Shown here: positions 245 to 53,633 of the stretch, one piece after another
Position numbering within the stretch: position 1 is the stretch's first letter
Layout: each line of letters begins with the position of its first letter
DNA from: Escherichia phage vB_EcoM_C2-3
DNA: 64,000 nt
Sequence record: OK076929.1
Reading direction: 5' to 3' (one strand)
The notes under the pieces: generated by a model
What the model was told of the DNA's origin: nothing
The model's database searches: none
What the model saw: only the letters and a program-made list of their open reading frames with translations
Made by a program: the position numbers and the translations under genes

Positions 245-317
245 TGGGAATTAGCCAAGTTGGTAAGGCACTGGATTTTGATTCCAGGATGCAAAGGTTC
301 GAGTCCTTTATTCCCAG
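245..317 (+). tRNA. tRNA-Gln (anticodon UUG)
   Basis: Cloverleaf by eye: acceptor tgggaat/attccca, anticodon loop ttTTGat, T-arm ggttcgagtcc. Confidence 0.8.
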
Positions 318-318
318 C

Positions 319-405
319 GCGAGAATGGCCAAATTGGTAAAGGCACAGCACTTAAAATGCTGCGGAATGATTTCCTTGTGGGTTCGAGTCCCACTTCTCG
401 CACCA
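319..405 (+). tRNA. tRNA-Leu (anticodon UAA), type II with long variable arm
   Basis: Acceptor gcgagaa/ttctcgc, anticodon loop ctTAAaa, long variable arm, T-arm ggttcgagtcc, encoded CCA. Confidence 0.8.
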
Positions 406-410
406 AATTT

Positions 411-484
<74 letters not shown>

Positions 485-494
485 ATTTAATTTA

Positions 495-568
495 CTCCGT
501 GTAGCTCAGTTTGGTAGAGCGTCTGCTTTGGGAGCAGAATGTCGTAGGTTCAAATCCTGCCACGGAGA
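495..568 (+). tRNA. tRNA-Pro (anticodon UGG)
   Basis: Acceptor ctccgtg/cacggag, anticodon loop ttTGGga, T-arm ggttcaaatcc. Confidence 0.8.
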
Positions 569-570
569 CT

Positions 571-660
571 GGAGGCGTGGCAGAGTGGTTTAATGCACCG
601 GTCTTGAAAACCGGCAGTCGCTCCGGCGACTCATAGGTTCAAATCCTATCGCCTCCGCCA
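571..660 (+). tRNA. tRNA-Ser (anticodon UGA), type II
   Basis: Acceptor ggaggcg/cgcctcc, anticodon loop ctTGAaa, long variable arm, encoded CCA. Confidence 0.8.
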
Positions 661-665
661 GTTTT

Positions 666-741
666 GCTGATTTAGCTCAGTAGGTAGAGCAACTCACTTG
701 TAATGAGAAGGTCGGCGGTTCGATTCCGTCAATCAGCACCA
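666..741 (+). tRNA. tRNA-Thr (anticodon UGU)
   Basis: Acceptor gctgatt/aatcagc, anticodon loop ctTGTaa, T-arm ggttcgattcc, encoded CCA. Confidence 0.75.
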
Positions 742-742
742 A

Positions 743-817
743 GGCCCTGTAGCTGGAAGGTTCAAGCAAGCGACTCATAATCGCCAGATGGTGGTTCAAT
801 TCCACCCAGGGCCACCA
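743..817 (+). tRNA. tRNA with CAU anticodon (Ile-lysidine type as in T4, or Met)
   Basis: Acceptor ggccctg/cagggcc, anticodon loop ctCATaa, T-arm ggttcaattcc; identity Ile vs Met not decidable by eye. Confidence 0.7.
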
Positions 818-826
818 AATTAATTT

Positions 827-913
827 GGGGAGTTATCCCGTAGAGGTAGCGGTGTGGACTGTAAATTCATTGTCATTGCGACTCGGGTGGTTCGACTCCA
901 CCACTCCCCACCA
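827..913 (+). tRNA. tRNA-Tyr candidate (anticodon GUA), type II
   Basis: Acceptor ggggagt/actcccc, putative anticodon loop ctGTAaa with G-U containing stem, long variable region, T-arm ggttcgactcc. Confidence 0.5.
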
Positions 914-917
914 ATTT

Positions 918-992
918 GGATGTGTAGCTCAATGGCAGAGCGATCGCCTGTTAAGCGATTGGTTATAGGTTCGAATCCTATCACGTCCGCCA
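918..992 (+). tRNA. tRNA-Asn (anticodon GUU)
   Basis: Acceptor ggatgtg/cacgtcc, anticodon stem atcgc/gcgat with loop ctGTTaa, T-arm ggttcgaatcc. Confidence 0.7.
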
Positions 993-1106
993 AATTTGTG
1001 ACAACTGTCACATTAATATCTACTTGACGCGATTATAGGGGTTGAACTGATCACTCTTCTCTTAATTTCGTGTGAAGACATCTTGATTGTTGGAGTAGGT
1101 ATTAAT

Positions 1107-1182
1107 GTGGCCGTAGTTCAGTTGGTAGAACTCGAGATTGTGATTCTCGTAGTCATGGGTTCGACTCCCATCGGTCACCCCA
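1107..1182 (+). tRNA. tRNA-His (anticodon GUG)
   Basis: Acceptor gtggccg/cggtcac, anticodon stem cgaga/tctcg with loop ttGTGat, T-arm ggttcgactcc. Confidence 0.7.
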
Positions 1183-1186
1183 ATTA

Positions 1187-1262
1187 CGGGGCATAGCTCA
1201 GAAGGAAGAGCAAGGACCTTCTAAGTCCTAGGTCGTAGGTTCGATCCCTACTGCCTCGACCA
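1187..1262 (+). tRNA. tRNA-Arg (anticodon UCU)
   Basis: Acceptor cggggca/tgcctcg, anticodon stem aggac/gtcct with loop ctTCTaa, T-arm ggttcgatccc. Confidence 0.75.
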
Positions 1263-1280: not shown

Positions 1281-1631
1281 ATGAAAGGTAATGTTTATTT
1301 AGTAGTTCATGATTTAACATTCTATTTTAATCATAATGATACTGTTATTTCTGAACGTGTAATTAATTTGCTTTATCAGCATGCAGATTATGTTTATGTC
1401 GAAAACGAATATGGTCATTGGCAATTTCTCAAAAATCGTTCATTTGGTTTAGATGGTTACGAATATTTTGATCGTAAAGACCTTTTAGATACAATTCCGT
1501 TATCTACACAATATCAAAATCATAAGTCTTTACATAAATGCCGGCTAATTCGAAATGCTGAATCCGCGTATGAAGCAATTGATTTGTGGCGTAAACGCCG
1601 TGAATATATTGATTCTTTAAAAGAATATTAA
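1281..1631 (+). CDS. hypothetical protein (116 aa) immediately downstream of tRNA-Arg
   Basis: ORF track; GAGG Shine-Dalgarno 8 nt upstream of ATG. Confidence 0.55.
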   Translation: MKGNVYLVVHDLTFYFNHNDTVISERVINLLYQHADYVYVENEYGHWQFLKNRSFGLDGYEYFDRKDLLDTIPLSTQYQNHKSLHKCRLIRNAESAYEAIDLWRKRREYIDSLKEY

Positions 1632-1639
1632 GAAACCGG

Positions 1640-1937
1640 GTCGCTACCGGTAAGTCGTCGGACTGATGTTCCCTGGAGTATAGTTTCCTCCCACAGTTTT
1701 ACTGTGTTCTGGCTCTTTACTATCACAGCAGAAACGGCGCACCGAATTATCGATTCGAGGAAATATCTTTGCCGTAAGCCGAGTAGCGTTTTTGACGGAA
1801 CGTTCGGATATGGTCGAGATATGGCCTTTTAAAAATATTGAGTAGCGTCAACTACTTAATAACCGGGTTCGAATCCCGGCGTTTCGTACAAACACTTGCC
1901 TTAGCAGGTGGAACCCCGACAAGGTTGCCGCAAGGCT
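1640..1937 (+). ncRNA. candidate small stable RNA region (tRNA-like T-arm element, no credible ORF)
   Basis: About 300 nt GC-richer segment without ORF, contains ccgggttcgaatcccgg T-arm-like hairpin, ends at intrinsic terminator; T4 encodes small stable RNAs next to its tRNAs. Confidence 0.35.
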
Positions 1938-1966
1938 TAGCCCCGACCGAAAGGTTGGGGCTTTTT
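1938..1966 (+). terminator. intrinsic terminator hairpin (ccccgacc-gaaa-ggttgggg + T-run)
   Basis: 8-bp stem with GNRA loop followed by cttttt. Confidence 0.6.
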
Positions 1967-1968
1967 GG

Positions 1969-1976
1969 TATAAATA
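1969..1976 (+). promoter_or_regulatory. late promoter (TATAAATA)
   Basis: Exact TATAAATA about 40 nt upstream of ATG at 2015. Confidence 0.5.
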
Positions 1977-2014
1977 TTAGTATATTAAATCTACAAATTA
2001 AAACAGGAAATAAG

Positions 2015-2488
2015 ATGAAATCATATACTCAATTTTTAAATGAAGCGGTGTTAAATGAAGCATCTAGCACCGAAATTCAAGCTGTTGCAAAAGCTGCCAT
2101 TGCCGCGGGTAAATATTCCTATAAAGATGCTTCTGATGAATCACGATTCCAGTTTGCACGCGACATGAAAGCGGAAGGATTTACGGGAAATGCAGTTAGT
2201 ATGGCCTGGAAAAGTTTAGTTGCTACTGGCGCTGCTTTTGCAAAGGCTTCGGGTAAACCTGCTCCTAAAGCAGATCCTAAAGCGGCACAAGAAAAAAATA
2301 TCGTTAAAGGAATTATCGCTAAATATGAAGCTATCCTTAAAGAGCTTTTAGTAATCAAAACCGAAGGCCAAAAGTTAGCCCGTGCTTATAGTTTCAAAGA
2401 TAATCCACATGCTCATGACCTAGAGTATGTTGAAGACATCCAAAAAATTATTAAAGACCGCATTTGGTCTGCTAAACAAATCAAATAA
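2015..2488 (+). CDS. internal-protein-like polypeptide with capsid-targeting-sequence-like N-terminus (MKSYTQFLNEA)
   Basis: N-terminus matches T4 internal protein CTS pattern MK-S/T-Y-x-x-F-L/I-x-E; Ala/Lys-rich body; ORF track start 1838 rejected as extension. Confidence 0.55.
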   Translation: MKSYTQFLNEAVLNEASSTEIQAVAKAAIAAGKYSYKDASDESRFQFARDMKAEGFTGNAVSMAWKSLVATGAAFAKASGKPAPKADPKAAQEKNIVKGIIAKYEAILKELLVIKTEGQKLARAYSFKDNPHAHDLEYVEDIQKIIKDRIWSAKQIK

Positions 2489-2495
2489 CATTCTT

Positions 2496-2523
2496 AGCCC
2501 CGACCAAAAGGTTGGGGCTTTTT
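2496..2523 (+). terminator. intrinsic terminator hairpin (second copy of the 1938-1966 hairpin)
   Basis: ccccgacc-aaaa-ggttgggg followed by cttttt; near-identical to 1938-1966. Confidence 0.6.
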
Positions 2524-2656
2524 GGTATCTAGGCCTTTCCGGGCCTCTCTAGGCATCATTTAGTTTCTATCCTTTATAATATATTATCCTATCCTTTGAT
2601 TTCCACTCCCTGCCCTAGAATTCCCCAAAACTTTTTAAAAATTTTTTCACAAAACT

Positions 2657-2690
2657 GTTTACAAGACTGTTCTTCTATGGTACTATACAA
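2657..2690 (+). promoter_or_regulatory. T4-type early promoter (GTTTAC -35, TACTAT -10)
   Basis: gtttacaagactgttcttctatggtactatacaactatc; repeated cassette also at 19201 and 45896. Confidence 0.55.
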
Positions 2691-2717
2691 CTATCAACTA
2701 CTGATATAGAAAACAAC

Positions 2718-2993
2718 TTGGAGAATGAAATGGATAATTACGGTGAACTGTTCAACTTCTTTATGAAATGTGTTTCAGAAGATTTTGGTCGTACGGTGAA
2801 TGATATTAAAGTTATCGGTCCTGACCATCCGATGTTTGAAACTTATGCAGTAATGGGTAATGAAGACGGTCAGTGGTATACTGTAAAGGTTGTGATTAAC
2901 ATGTTCACTGCTGAAGGTTATGTTAAACTGTCTTCTAAAGTTTACTATGATAACGACGAAATCGCAGAAGAATATTTCAATAATATGAAATAA
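2718..2993 (+). CDS. hypothetical protein (91 aa)
   Basis: ORF track; GGAG SD upstream. Confidence 0.55.
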   Translation: MENEMDNYGELFNFFMKCVSEDFGRTVNDIKVIGPDHPMFETYAVMGNEDGQWYTVKVVINMFTAEGYVKLSSKVYYDNDEIAEEYFNNMK

Positions 2994-3023
2994 GTTTACA
3001 CAGGCTCATGATTGAGATATTAT
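2994..3023 (+). promoter_or_regulatory. early promoter (GTTTAC, 18 bp, TATTAT) with -10 inside inverted repeat
   Basis: gtttac 2994-2999, tattat 3018-3023; ggctcat/atgagcc inverted repeat flanks -10. Confidence 0.5.
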
Positions 3024-3382: not shown

Positions 3383-3412
3383 GTTTACAAACTCTTGGGA
3401 GTAGAGTATAAT
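3383..3412 (+). promoter_or_regulatory. early promoter (GTTTAC, 18 bp, TATAAT) with inverted repeat around -10
   Basis: gtttac 3383-3388, tataat 3407-3412, gggagta/tactccc repeat. Confidence 0.5.
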
Positions 3413-3456
3413 ACTCCCACGGATTATAAAACCCTTAATTAACTAAAGGAAATGTT

Positions 3457-4050
3457 ATGAACACACTGAAGAAAATTGTTGAGTTTATTCGCACTAAACT
3501 TGGTTCTGCTATGGCTAAAAATCTATCTGTTGAAGAACAGTATACTGCTGCGGCAGCAAAACTACTTGATAAGATTAAAGATCTAAAAACTGCTTCTGTT
3601 AAATCTATTAATGAAGAAAAGCGTATTCGTGAACTTATTGTCGAAAAGAATAAGCAGGCCGAATCAAAAGAGCGTGAAATTCGCAAGCTTCTTTCGGAAG
3701 GTCAAGATGTAACAATGCATGCTAAACTTGGTTTACTATATCGTCGAACAGCTGAGCAGTTGACTACTAAAGCTGATGGTTATGCTGAAATGCGAATTGA
3801 AATCGCCAAGAAAGTAGTTGAGTTAGATGATGCTCGCCAAGAACTTGCAGTTAAATTGGAATATATCCGTGAAACTCGTGCTGCGAATGCCCTTGGAATT
3901 AGTACTGCTGATGATGTAGTTGAAATTGCAGCACTGACTAAAGTTGATATTGAAGATACTCTTGCTCGAGTTGAAACCTTTAATGGCAATATTTCTGGGG
4001 TTGAAACTACCTCTGCTGATGTTCAGGAATACATTAATTCTCTGAAATAA
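3457..4050 (+). CDS. hypothetical coiled-coil protein (197 aa)
   Basis: ORF track; highly charged, heptad-like composition. Confidence 0.55.
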
Positions 4051-4056
4051 TGATAA

Positions 4057-4076
4057 AGGGGCTTCGGCCCCTATTA
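4057..4076 (+). terminator. hairpin (ggggc-ttcg-gcccc), weak T-tract
   Basis: UUCG tetraloop stem directly after stop codon; short U-tract. Confidence 0.4.
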
Positions 4077-4092
4077 CTTGGAGTAAATAGGA

Positions 4093-4701
4093 ATGAAAAT
4101 GCAAAGTGATTTCAATTCAATGTTTGAAGAATTCCAAAGACAAGTTGATGTTCCAGACCAATTATTAAATGCTCTTAAACGTATGGCAGAAGGACGTAAT
4201 TATTATTGGGGTTCTTCATATGAAACTGATGAAAGTCTTTCTGGAAGATTTTCTAGAGGTAAAAAGTCTTTAATACGTCCTGGAATACTTATTAACAGTA
4301 TTGAATCAATTCATTTATTAACATGCGATTTTGATGTTGAATTTACTGATTTTGTTTCTCCTGAATGGACAGTATGTTATTTAAACGACGATTATGATTA
4401 TCTTGGCGTTTATAGTTTAAGTGACGCATGGTTTAAACGTAATTTACAAAAGTCAAATTTATTCTATATTGATACTACGGTAAAATTTCAGGGCAAGAAA
4501 TATTTCTTTACTCTTATAGTTGATTCTGAAACGAAGCATGAAAATAAACGTATTCTTAGTAAAAAGAATATCTTAACTATTGTTGATGATCTTTTTGATA
4601 AATTCGTAGAAAATCCCAATTTTGAAAGCGATTTATTACTAGAAAAATTTGTTAAGGAATGTAGAGAATATGTCAAAACCATCACTATACCTTCCAAGTA
4701 A
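4093..4701 (+). CDS. hypothetical protein (202 aa), first member of tandem family ending in FVKECR motif
   Basis: ORF track; C-terminal KFVKECREY motif shared with next three ORFs. Confidence 0.55.
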   Translation: MKMQSDFNSMFEEFQRQVDVPDQLLNALKRMAEGRNYYWGSSYETDESLSGRFSRGKKSLIRPGILINSIESIHLLTCDFDVEFTDFVSPEWTVCYLNDDYDYLGVYSLSDAWFKRNLQKSNLFYIDTTVKFQGKKYFFTLIVDSETKHENKRILSKKNILTIVDDLFDKFVENPNFESDLLLEKFVKECREYVKTITIPSK

Positions 4702-6328: not shown

Positions 6329-6859
<531 letters not shown>

Positions 6860-6863
6860 AGTT

Positions 6864-6894
6864 GTTTACTTTCTCCTAGAATTGTGATAGTATA
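6864..6894 (+). promoter_or_regulatory. early promoter upstream of denV
   Basis: gtttac 6864-6869, tagtat -10 about 18 bp downstream. Confidence 0.45.
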
Positions 6895-6918
6895 TTCACA
6901 GTTACTTGGAGGGATAAA

Positions 6919-7335
6919 ATGACTCGTATTAATTTGACTTTAGTATCTGAACTTGCTGATCAACATTTAATCGCAGAATACCGTGAATTGCCGCGTGTTT
7001 TTGGTATAGTTCGTAAGCATGTGGCAAACGGTAAGCGCGTTAAAGATTTTAAAATATCTTCTAAATTTATTTTAGGTTCTGGTCATGTTACTTTCTTTTA
7101 CGATAAGTTAGAATTTTTGCGAAAGCGTCAATCGGACATTATAACGGAATGCTTAAAACGCGGGTTCAGTATAAAAGATACTGAAGTTCCTGACATCAGC
7201 GATATTCCAGTAGAATGGAAAAATGATTATAATCCATGCAAATCAGCTATTAAGTTGAGTCAACAACGACTCGATGAAAAAATTTTAATGAAGCCACACT
7301 GGTATAAGTATTACGGCAAAAATATTTACATTTAA
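6919..7335 (+). CDS. denV: endonuclease V (pyrimidine dimer DNA glycosylase)
   Basis: 138 aa, recognised as T4 endo V ([29 protein letters not shown]...). Confidence 0.9.
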
Positions 7336-7481
7336 ATAACATGGGAATAACCTGGACCTCATGATTCTGTGAGGGATTCCCGCCAACCTGTAATAAGGTC
7401 GAGCCCAAGTGCGGTAATGGGTAAATACAGAAATGGACAATTCATGCGCCATGGAATGGCCCAAACCTAGAGAGAACAAAA

Positions 7482-12716: not shown

Positions 12717-12724
12717 TATAAATA
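12717..12724 (+). promoter_or_regulatory. late promoter (TATAAATA)
   Basis: Exact TATAAATA upstream of 12750 ORF and rI. Confidence 0.45.
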
Positions 12725-12749: not shown

Positions 12750-12962
12750 ATGCTACAATTAACTGAAAAGCAACTTCGCAATCTTACTGTGCTTCAATTA
12801 GATGAAATTCGTAGGGAAGTTGGAAATATCATTTCAGCTTTGCGTCGAGAAGTATCACTCAACCAATCTCCGGCAGACTATACTAGATTGCGAAATTTTG
12901 AAAAATACCTTGATAAAGTTAAGGCCGTGCATCGGCATAAAGTAAATACAGGACAAAAATGA
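12750..12962 (+). CDS. hypothetical protein (70 aa)
   Basis: ORF track; GGGG SD. Confidence 0.5.
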
Positions 12963-40370: not shown

Positions 40371-41057
40371 ATGAAACTGTCTAAAGATACTACTGCTCTG
40401 CTTAAAAATTTCGCTACTATTAACTCTGGCATTATGCTTAAATCCGGTCAATTTATTATGACTCGCGCAGTTAATGGTACAACTTACGCGGAAGCAAATA
40501 TTTCTGACGTTATTGATTTTGATGTAGCAATTTACGATTTGAACGGTTTTCTCGGTATTCTGTCGCTAGTTAATGATGATGCAGAAATTTCCCAGTCAGA
40601 AGATGGAAATATTAAAATTGCTGATGCTCGTTCAACAATTTTTTGGCCAGCAGCCGATCCGAGTACAGTAGTTGCTCCTAATAAACCAATTCCATTTCCG
40701 GTAGCATCTGTTGTTACTGAAATTAAAGCTGAAGACCTTCAACAACTGTTGCGTGTATCTCGTGGTCTGCAAATTGATACAATTGCTATCACGGTAAAAG
40801 AAGGTAAAATCGTAATTAACGGTTTTAATAAAGTAGAAGATTCTGCTTTGACACGTGTTAAATATTCTTTGACTCTTGGTGATTATGATGGTGAAAATAC
40901 ATTTAATTTCATTATAAATATGGCAAATATGAAAATGCAACCAGGAAATTATAAACTTCTGCTCTGGGCAAAAGGTAAACAAGGCGCTGCTAAATTTGAA
41001 GGTGAACACGCGAATTATGTAGTAGCTCTTGAAGCTGATTCTACCCACGATTTTTAA
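40371..41057 (+). CDS. 45: sliding clamp gp45
   Basis: 228 aa, recognised as T4 gp45. Confidence 0.95.
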   Translation: MKLSKDTTALLKNFATINSGIMLKSGQFIMTRAVNGTTYAEANISDVIDFDVAIYDLNGFLGILSLVNDDAEISQSEDGNIKIADARSTIFWPAADPSTVVAPNKPIPFPVASVVTEIKAEDLQQLLRVSRGLQIDTIAITVKEGKIVINGFNKVEDSALTRVKYSLTLGDYDGENTFNFIINMANMKMQPGNYKLLLWAKGKQGAAKFEGEHANYVVALEADSTHDF

Positions 41058-53468: not shown

Positions 53469-53633
53469 ATGAAAACATATAAAGAATTTATCAAAGAAGA
53501 TATGGTTGCTGGAGATTCAGGTGGTAATCCTGAAAATATCTCTACTGGAACAACATCAGGTGCTGTAGTAAATAAAGGTCCTGAACAGATTCCTAAAAAG
53601 AAAAAAGAGGAATCTAAAGAAAAAGAAGAGTAA
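53469..53633 (+). CDS. hypothetical small protein (54 aa) with CTS-like N-terminus MKTYKEFIKE
   Basis: Below ORF-track cutoff; N-terminus matches internal-protein capsid targeting pattern. Confidence 0.4.
   Translation: MKTYKEFIKEDMVAGDSGGNPENISTGTTSGAVVNKGPEQIPKKKKEESKEKEE

Follow-up and report, generated by a model that had tools for sequence, protein, structure and literature searches.

A candidate internal head protein family of T4-like phages, encoded on a repeat-bounded late-promoter cassette between rnaC and e.8

The first ten residues of IPIII, an internal protein (Ip) of phage T4, suffice to package foreign proteins in T4. Suppressor analysis of this capsid-targeting sequence (CTS) indicates that residues 4 and 7 mainly control targeting and that residues 8 and 10 control processing; the protease gp21 cleaves after Glu in the motif L/I-x-E (PMC9026906). 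IPI has a longer leader (19 residues) and a compact alpha/beta fold (PMC3012670). Ip1, Ip2, and Ip3, which are mutually unrelated in sequence, were shown in 2025 to inhibit GmrSD type IV restriction enzymes, a different one in each case; two Ip loci have been recognised (57B-tRNA.4 and the e-denV neighbourhood), and the other proteins of these loci are expected by the authors to act likewise (PMC12373910). Genes can also come and go on small units: ORFans flanked by PeSL elements in phages RB49 and phi1 excise as mini-circles and could, in principle, reinsert (PMC2839356). Here, we describe a 157-amino acid (aa) open reading frame (ORF) from a 64,000-nucleotide (nt) stretch of the genome of Escherichia phage vB_EcoM_C2-3 (OK076929.1), which we will call the window and which, by sequence comparison, belongs to a Tequatrovirus. 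The ORF lies between a stable RNA that resembles T4 rnaC and the homologue of T4 e.8 (coordinates of this and other features are in Table 1). We propose, with a probability of roughly 0.68, that its product is a packaged and processed internal head protein. The sequence data support an Ip family that has gone unannotated, at a third locus, on a repeat-bounded cassette with a late promoter.

The protein begins MKSYTQFLNEAVLNEASS, and its N-terminus reads MKSYTQFLNE/AVLNE/AS (slashes mark potential gp21 sites). T4 IPII and IPIII start with MKTYQEFIAE/A, and IPI starts with MKTFKEF. The leader keeps Y4, F7, L8 (I8 in IPII and IPIII), and E10, followed by Ala; all four mapped CTS determinants (residues 4, 7, 8, and 10) are thus in place, along with the gp21 rule L/I-x-E. 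The leader is not a chance match: of the 613 ATG frames in the window that reach 40 aa or more, just 2 open with the motif MK[ST][YF]..F[ILVT].E. LNE/A occurs twice, at residues 8-11 and 13-16, because of an in-frame tandem duplication in which TTAAATGAAGC is repeated 15 nt apart. Homologues without the five extra residues have a single site that abuts [AQ]SS[ST][DE], and homologue leaders read MKTYNEFLTE/QSSSD, MKTYNEFLMTE/ASSSD, or MKFKEFLAE/ASSDV. Among full-length homologues, the length of the leader varies, and in all of them L-x-E precedes the conserved mature start. A drifting length together with a constant L-x-E at the mature start is the pattern expected of a removable targeting peptide. 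The final mature N-terminus of the window protein is predicted to be A16 (ASSTE...). Uncut precursor would yield SYTQFLNEAVLNEASSTEIQAVAK, and the cleaved forms would yield AVLNEASSTEIQAVAK or ASSTEIQAVAK. We also considered a longer, TTG-started frame (1838-2488), and rejected it: it crosses the 3' flank of rnaC and the terminator, and all of the GenBank records that we examined start at the ATG.

The T4-type late promoter TATAAATA upstream of the ORF is fused to the T-run of the first of two terminators. By itself, an TATAAATA motif in AT-rich DNA could be a chance match. However, the window contains only 6 copies (versus 11.3 ± 3.7 in shuffled sequences), all of them on the + strand, and 5 of the 6 fall between genes, with a start codon 8-38 nt downstream. 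(Two of these precede the lysozyme gene e, and another precedes an ORF that resembles T4 Soc; besides the cassette, the motif marks these late genes.) Because the motif is depleted, restricted to the + strand, and mostly intergenic before starts, the copy at 1969 behaves like the functional ones. Seven other phages from three genera, including WG01, KP1, fD1, CAM-21, G29, and ES12, also have TATAAATA at a distance of 34-48 nt before the ATG, and where we inspected the sequences (the window, G29, WG01, and KP1) it immediately follows a terminator T-run. Suitable spacing before the start codon and retention in homologues are what would be expected of a late gene. As for the remaining copies in the window, the one at 40913 is inside a 233-codon open frame, and the one at 12717 is upstream of an unidentified 70-aa ORF that starts at 12750. 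Downstream of the promoter, the leader (1975-2060) folds at −3.4 kcal/mol, which is weaker than 196 of 200 shuffles, and a Shine-Dalgarno sequence precedes the ATG; the ribosome binding sites of T4 ipII and ipIII read AAAGGAAACAT-ATG.

The promoter and the ORF form a self-contained unit. Two hairpins, each with 10 base pairs (7 of them G-C) followed by TTTTT, bracket this unit and sit within a 36-nt direct repeat whose copies are 35/36 identical. There is no further copy of the repeat in the 64-kb window, and the chance expectation is 0. The upstream hairpin (1939-1962) has a minimum free energy of −21.6 kcal/mol (z = −3.4) and the downstream hairpin (2496-2519) has a minimum free energy of −19.7 kcal/mol (z = −4.6); in both cases, 0 of 200 shuffles folded as well. 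To size the corresponding interval in other phages, we located the conserved anchors 1860-1935 and 2529-2620 (the left anchor is 97-100% identical in T2, T4, T6, fD1, G29, ES12, and WG01). T2, T4, and T6 have 36 bases between the anchors, which is a single copy of the repeat. The window, ES12, CAM-21, and fD1 have 591-595 bases, with the order repeat, promoter, ORF, repeat. G29 has 1279 bases, with the same arrangement plus a second cassette. So, from the rnaC-like RNA to e.8, the window is longer than T2, T4, and T6 by exactly 557 bases. As this is one repeat copy plus the promoter-ORF unit, it is the signature of homologous recombination between repeats. Recombination between the 36-nt repeats would delete the 557-bp unit precisely, to give the arrangement of T2, T4, and T6, and the unit could be inserted by the same reaction run in reverse. 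In ES12 (~6506-6541, corresponding to 2493-2528 of the window), the downstream hairpin has its inner part in the opposite orientation to that of the window (AGCCCCAACCTTTTGGTCGGGGCT versus AGCCCCGACCAAAAGGTTGGGGCT), and the stem-loop is kept.

Most of this anatomy had been proposed in a first-pass annotation that was generated by a model from the letters of the window. It described an ORF that begins with an Ip-like CTS, two near-identical terminator hairpins on either side, a late promoter of the gene's own, an early promoter after the ORF, a self-contained cassette overall, and no ip genes between e and denV. Each of these features is present, either where the annotation placed it or 1-3 nt away: the ORF is ATG-initiated and 157 aa long, the leader fits the IPII/IPIII pattern with Y4, F7, L8 (for I8), E10, and LNE/A, the late promoter is credible from its depletion and placement in the window, the early promoter lies ahead of the e.8 homologue (T4 has the same one upstream of e.8), and the comparison to T2, T4, and T6 bears out the cassette.

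The family is found in 511 phage records, and every record that we sampled annotates it as hypothetical. When we searched 5.8 and 1.8 billion proteins, T4-like phages were the only source of homologues. (The exhaustive HMMER search of 1.8 billion representatives gave 11 matches, of which 8 are homologues, or fragments of them, from T4-like phages. The other 3, P0017-19, are long repeat proteins with no consistent Pfam family, and we judged them to be compositional noise.) The wider region (1600-3000) matches 768 phage records, nearly all from T4-like phages of enterobacteria, and the nearest are Escherichia phages ES12 and ES26 (98.9% identity). The protein is 75% identical to its homologue in WG01 (a Dhakavirus) and 58% identical, over the N-terminal half, to the homologue in KP1 (a Jiaodavirus). 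The order tRNA/rnaC, ORF, e.8 is common to WG01, KP1, and the Tequatroviruses, which are the three genera that we sampled. Relative to WG01, the rate of synonymous change (dS) is near saturation, at about 2, and the ratio of nonsynonymous to synonymous rates (dN/dS) is 0.07, so the ORF is under strong purifying selection.

Because the difference from T2, T4, and T6 is bounded exactly by the repeats, it might be suspected that the cassette was inserted recently, after horizontal transfer, as a mobile promoter-gene-terminator unit, either a moron or something like the mini-circles that PeSL-flanked ORFans form (PMC2839356). The site does take other cassettes, as in G29 and WG01. However, the Dhakavirus and Jiaodavirus homologues have the same position and the same terminator-TATAAATA arrangement at near-saturated dS, and loss by repeat recombination is the more parsimonious account of the polymorphism among the T-even relatives, in which T2, T4, and T6 lack the ORF and retain one repeat. 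We consider a recent insertion to be unlikely. Given a homologue at the equivalent site in other genera and the dS value, the cassette has probably been at the site for a long time, and some Tequatrovirus lineages, those of T2, T4, and T6 among them, would have lost it. In any case, insertion concerns only the history of the gene and is compatible with the functional explanation.

The protein is expressed, at least in a close relative. Protein g140 of Yersinia phage fD1, which is 98% identical to the window protein (tblastn), was marked PPAP (it passed the strict threshold) in liquid chromatography-tandem mass spectrometry (LC-MS/MS) of ultracentrifuge-purified virions, and its table entry states that no similar protein is expressed by T4 (PMC8309999, Table S3). 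The detection of g140 proves expression and is compatible with packaging.

Several observations weigh against our proposal. First, 137 of the 277 proteins of fD1 were in the preparation, along with 672 host proteins, and the 137 include DenV, lysozyme e, NudE, and thymidine kinase (PMC8309999). As the preparation is rich in non-structural proteins, being particle-associated there mostly proves expression. (We did not find a cleaner Tequatrovirus virion proteome in the literature.) Second, the homologue of T4 gene 61.1 in the window also has a CTS-like start (MKTYKEFIKE/D), so the motif is not fully specific. Across the T4 superfamily, 1396 records have a conserved 61.1 ORF; it belongs to an early gene cluster, and its product is not known to be a virion protein. 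Residues 7-38 of the 61.1 protein align with the cleavage junction of the gp23 propeptide and the first mature residues of gp23 from Acinetobacter phage 133 (FLAE/AEIAGDHGYNPTNIASGQASGAITNIGP). The alignment suggests that 61.1 is a small mimic of the gp23 junction and that the Ip leader mimics the end of the gp23 propeptide.

Both of these observations would be expected if the gene encoded a late non-virion protein, whose leader resembles a CTS as a shared start region that is efficiently translated, or through common descent of its first codons, and whose detection in fD1 was due to carry-over from the lysate. We think that this is very unlikely. The leader is kept as amino acids with different codons, changes in its length always spare the L-x-E, and the four key residues of a leader that packages foreign proteins in T4 (PMC9026906) are all present. 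The strict conservation of the late promoter also suits a component of the head.

Third, the resemblance to known Ips does not extend past the leader. BLASTP of the window protein against IPIII gave E > 1 with no similarity past the leader, and the comparison to the annotated Ip of fD1 (g129) likewise found no similarity past the leader. Similarity to the known Ips is visible in the leader, which has the IPII/IPIII pattern, and not in the mature part, for which IPIII and g129 were compared. In this respect, the protein is like the known Ips, which are also dissimilar from each other past their leaders. The only match in PHROGs is to phrog_2280 ("unknown function"), and Pfam and NCBIfam had no significant matches, with scores far under the cut-offs. 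Fold comparison does not help either: a Foldseek search of the AlphaFold2 model against BFVD and the PDB found nothing outside of the protein's own family at E < 1. (A profile search of PDB sequences gave a designer pentatricopeptide repeat protein at E = 1e-11, which we rejected: no single stretch passed, and the score summed weak matches to consensus repeats. A single-sequence search of PDB sequences had no match below E = 0.38.) Full-text literature searches, with RB32ORF133c and with the leader peptide, found no description of the protein, and it is absent from the supplements of Silas et al. (2025).

Fourth, the gene lies between rnaC and e.8, which is outside both of the recognised Ip loci. 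This failure to match concerns location and not mechanism. Fifth, T4 ipI, ipII, and ipIII lack TATAAATA within 70 nt and have promoter/stem-loop elements of the early type, and the same is true of Ip7, Ip9, and the 157-aa Ip of fD1 and T2. As every member of the 2015-2488 family that we examined has TATAAATA upstream, its regulation differs from that of the known ip genes. Sixth, there is a third L-x-E site in the protein (LKE at 108-110), within what is predicted to be a long helix. Cleavage there would break up the protein in the manner of a core protein.

The sixth point leads to another explanation for a packaged and processed protein, namely that its role is architectural. The precursor is 17.2 kDa with an isoelectric point (pI) of 9.4 and has 28 Ala and 25 Lys+Arg residues; removing 10 or 15 residues leaves a computed 16.0 or 15.5 kDa with a pI of 9.4-9.5. 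This Ala/Lys-rich basic composition resembles that of IPII and IPIII. The AlphaFold2 model is all-alpha (pLDDT of 73.6): it places residues ~17-75 in a small, helical N-terminal domain and residues 88-154 in a long helical hairpin, with a Pro/Lys linker in between. Such a protein could be a basic core or DNA-associated component that aids assembly of the prohead core or condensation of the DNA, as has been proposed for IPIII, or with cleavage at the internal LKE it could be a scaffold-like protein that is fragmented and expelled. T4 mutants that are defective in IPIII, or in all three Ips, accumulate polyheads (PMC9026906), and synteny across genera suggests a gene that is more "housekeeping" than the fast-swapping genes of the ipI locus. 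On the other hand, the gene is dispensable, as T2, T4, and T6 are precisely without it, and Ip3, which was once thought to be architectural, has a specific GmrSD target (PMC12373910). Furthermore, the N-terminal domain is kept across genera, and the C-terminal half is swapped for unrelated sequence in the homologues from Jiaodavirus and Yersinia phages, which is more typical of arms-race proteins. We consider an architectural role to be improbable.

The gene is the only Ip-like late gene within the window, since ipII, ipIII, and another CTS protein are missing. T4 carries ipIII and ipII between e and denV, where the window has just 59 nt. This gap retains GTTTAC...TAGTAT and a stem-loop across the −10 region (GAATTGTGATAGTATATTCACAGTT), which is the PeSL-like element that precedes ipIII in T4, and it fits gain or loss of the ipIII-ipII pair as mediated by the promoter/stem-loop. 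A 157-aa CTS protein (MKTYQEFITE/AA) follows denV in fD1 (where it is g129, annotated as a head protein and detected by mass spectrometry), T2, and ES12, and is missing from the window. The corresponding place in the window (7330-7345) has a clean junction, TTTAAA/TAACATGGG, which is consistent with a microhomology-bounded indel. The ipI locus is just upstream of the window; ES12 has a T6-type 77-aa Ip there.

Our proposal for how the cassette operates is as follows. Early and middle transcripts of the tRNA/rnaC unit would end at copy 1 of the terminator. At late times, a gp55-dependent promoter, TATAAATA, would start a short monocistronic mRNA that ends at copy 2 of the terminator, so that the gene would be transcribed only late. 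The 17-kDa precursor would be drawn into the core of the assembling prohead by MKSYTQFLNE, and gp21 would cut after Glu10 and/or Glu15 to leave a basic protein of ~15.5-16 kDa that stays trapped with the DNA. The mature protein would then enter the host with the genome at the next infection.

A further step would be for the injected protein to act as an anti-defence effector, to which we give somewhat less than even odds. By analogy to Ip1-3, this is the likeliest function, and the target would be a defence against incoming glucosyl-hydroxymethylcytosine DNA, such as a variant of the GmrSD-type type IV restriction enzymes. The first-pass annotation noted that at least one internal protein, IPI, counters a host restriction system; this holds for IPI and now extends to all three T4 Ips, as each inhibits GmrSD-type enzymes (PMC12373910). 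Because the window protein has no detectable similarity to Ip1-3 (IPIII was compared) and no fold match, its anti-GmrSD role would be by analogy only, which counts against this step. As Ip1-3 are themselves mutually unrelated, a missing relationship is still compatible with such a function.

The site may also be more than a location for a single gene. In G29 (MK327940), a second cassette (3397-4103) directly follows the first one; the window has no such cassette between 2528 and 2529. The extra cassette has a CTS-bearing 54-aa ORF (MKTYAEFLTE/AA) that overlaps, by ATGA, a 133-aa ORF, and it closes with a different hairpin and then the shared CTTTTTGGTAT junction. A cassette of this type is apparently present in other Tequatroviruses as well, as they have an equal ~2.08-kb three-piece match. 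In WG01, a repeated hairpin (GGCCCTTCCGAAAGGTTGGGC plus a T-run) flanks the homologue along with a second ORF. Because G29 has a second CTS gene there, the rnaC-e.8 site behaves as a hotspot for CTS genes. A bolder proposal, which is possible but which we would bet against, is that rnaC-e.8 is the third hotspot for injected proteins, that CTS genes are swapped via terminator repeats with a GCTTTTTGGTAT junction, and that the 157-aa protein inhibits a defence beyond those that Ip1-3 address. The GCTTTTTGGTAT junction would become a late promoter whenever AAATA follows it, and the defence target would be a further GmrSD subtype or a different system. If so, then the protein would have escaped sixty years of T-even genetics because T2, T4, and T6 do not have the gene.

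Table 1. Features of the window that bear on the cassette, its candidate product, and its surroundings. Positions are those of the 64,000-nt stretch.
Feature	Position	Strand	Remarks
Eleven tRNA genes	245-1262		
116-aa ORF, phrog_3355 (unknown function)	1281-1631	+	Between tRNA-Arg and rnaD-like RNA
rnaD/rnaC-like stable RNA region	1632-1888	+	Matches T4 rnaD/rnaC of NC_000866; end of tRNA cluster; left anchor of cassette
Direct repeat copy 1, terminator of tRNA/rnaC unit	1936-1971	+	Stem-loop 1939-1962, T-run 1963-1967, then GGTAT
T4-type late promoter TATAAATA	1969-1976	+	38 nt before ATG; first three bases shared with the end of repeat copy 1
All TATAAATA sites in window	1969, 6331, 6344, 12717, 40913, 55822	+	
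Shine-Dalgarno AGGAAA	2005-2010	+	4 nt before ATG; leader unstructured
Candidate internal (injected) head protein ORF, phrog_2280	2015-2488	+	157 aa, ATG start
CTS-like leader MKSYTQFLNE, codons 1-10	2015-2044	+	Ends in putative gp21 site LNE/A
In-frame 15-nt tandem duplication (TTAAATGAAGC twice)	2036-2061	+	15 nt apart; second LNE/A
Direct repeat copy 2, cassette terminator	2493-2528	+	Stem-loop 2496-2519; one loop base differs from copy 1
Early (sigma-70-type) promoter of e.8	2658-2686	+	TTTACA-17-TACTAT, TG extension; AT-rich upstream from ~2621
e.8 homologue	2727-2993	+	Right-hand neighbour of cassette
e-denV gap	6860-6918	+	59 nt, no ORF; e ends 6859, denV starts 6919
T4 gene 61.1 homologue	53469-53633	+	54 aa, starts MKTYKEFIKE/D; early 41-61 cluster, directly upstream of primase gene 61

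We compared the surroundings of the cassette to the T4 map (NC_000866). After e.8 come the homologues of the T4 genes through e.1/nudE and then e (6365-6859) and denV (6919-7335). On the other side, the window has tRNA genes for Met, Tyr, Asn, and His that T4 does not. In T4, the homing endonuclease gene segB is directly upstream of tRNA-Arg, and the interval between tRNA-Arg and rnaD, which contains the 116-aa ORF in the window, is empty. In some GenBank records, the rnaC-like RNA (2696-2789 of G29, or approximately 1795-1888 of the window) is labelled as tRNA-Lys(ttt). In the window, neither ARAGORN nor Rfam called a tRNA there, and no Rfam family matched the hairpins or the rnaC-like RNA.

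Of all phage products, injected internal proteins encounter the defences of the host first. About 500 T4-like phages with sequenced genomes carry the family that we describe, and many of these phages come from E. coli, Shigella, Yersinia, or Klebsiella hosts. As a probable Ip, its product becomes a concrete candidate for a factor against host defences and for a determinant of host range. It would also extend the map of Ip loci and would add a version with a terminator plus a late promoter to the repeat-mediated shuffling of cassettes that is known for early promoters (PMC2839356).

Among known systems, the closest are IPII and IPIII. The window protein shares with them the ten-residue leader pattern, the L/I-x-E site, a small, basic, and Ala/Lys-rich mature protein, and an AAGGAAA-type ribosome binding site, and, like them, it is non-essential and variably present among T-even phages. 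It differs in its locus (rnaC-e.8 instead of e-denV), in having a canonical late promoter after a terminator where ipII and ipIII have promoter/stem-loop elements of the early type, in its duplicated cleavage site, and in its sequence past the leader (again, as compared to IPIII). IPI (Ip1, the inhibitor of the GmrSD of E. coli CT596) has a related leader, MKTFKEF, and the same logic of packaging, processing, and injection (PMC3012670; PMC12373910) may apply here. In contrast to IPI, the window protein is modelled as all-alpha and is unrelated, and a GmrSD target is suggested for it by analogy alone. Ip7 and Ip9 from the ipI locus, and the post-denV protein of fD1, T2, and ES12, belong to the same leader family and size class. 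Unlike the window gene, these are encoded at recognised Ip loci and have no TATAAATA upstream, and the mature sequence of g129 is unrelated.

The cassette itself is most similar to the PeSL cassettes of RB49 and phi1 (Arbiol et al., 2010, PMC2839356). In both, a non-essential ORF lies between repeated regulatory stem-loops and is transcriptionally insulated, and relatives that lack the ORF retain just one repeat in its place (36 nt in T2, T4, and T6). However, PeSL elements are composites that join an early promoter to a stem-loop, and these do not flank the unit in the window. Its repeats are a terminator hairpin and a T-run, the upstream copy is joined to a late promoter, and the early promoter is single and lies ~130 nt beyond the downstream copy. 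The cassette also resembles the morons of lambdoid phages, which are single genes with their own promoter and terminator between two transcription units. Morons are without homologous repeats at their borders, and their expression is typically from a prophage (PMC2839356), whereas the unit in the window is in a virulent phage, is bounded by repeats, and bears a late promoter.

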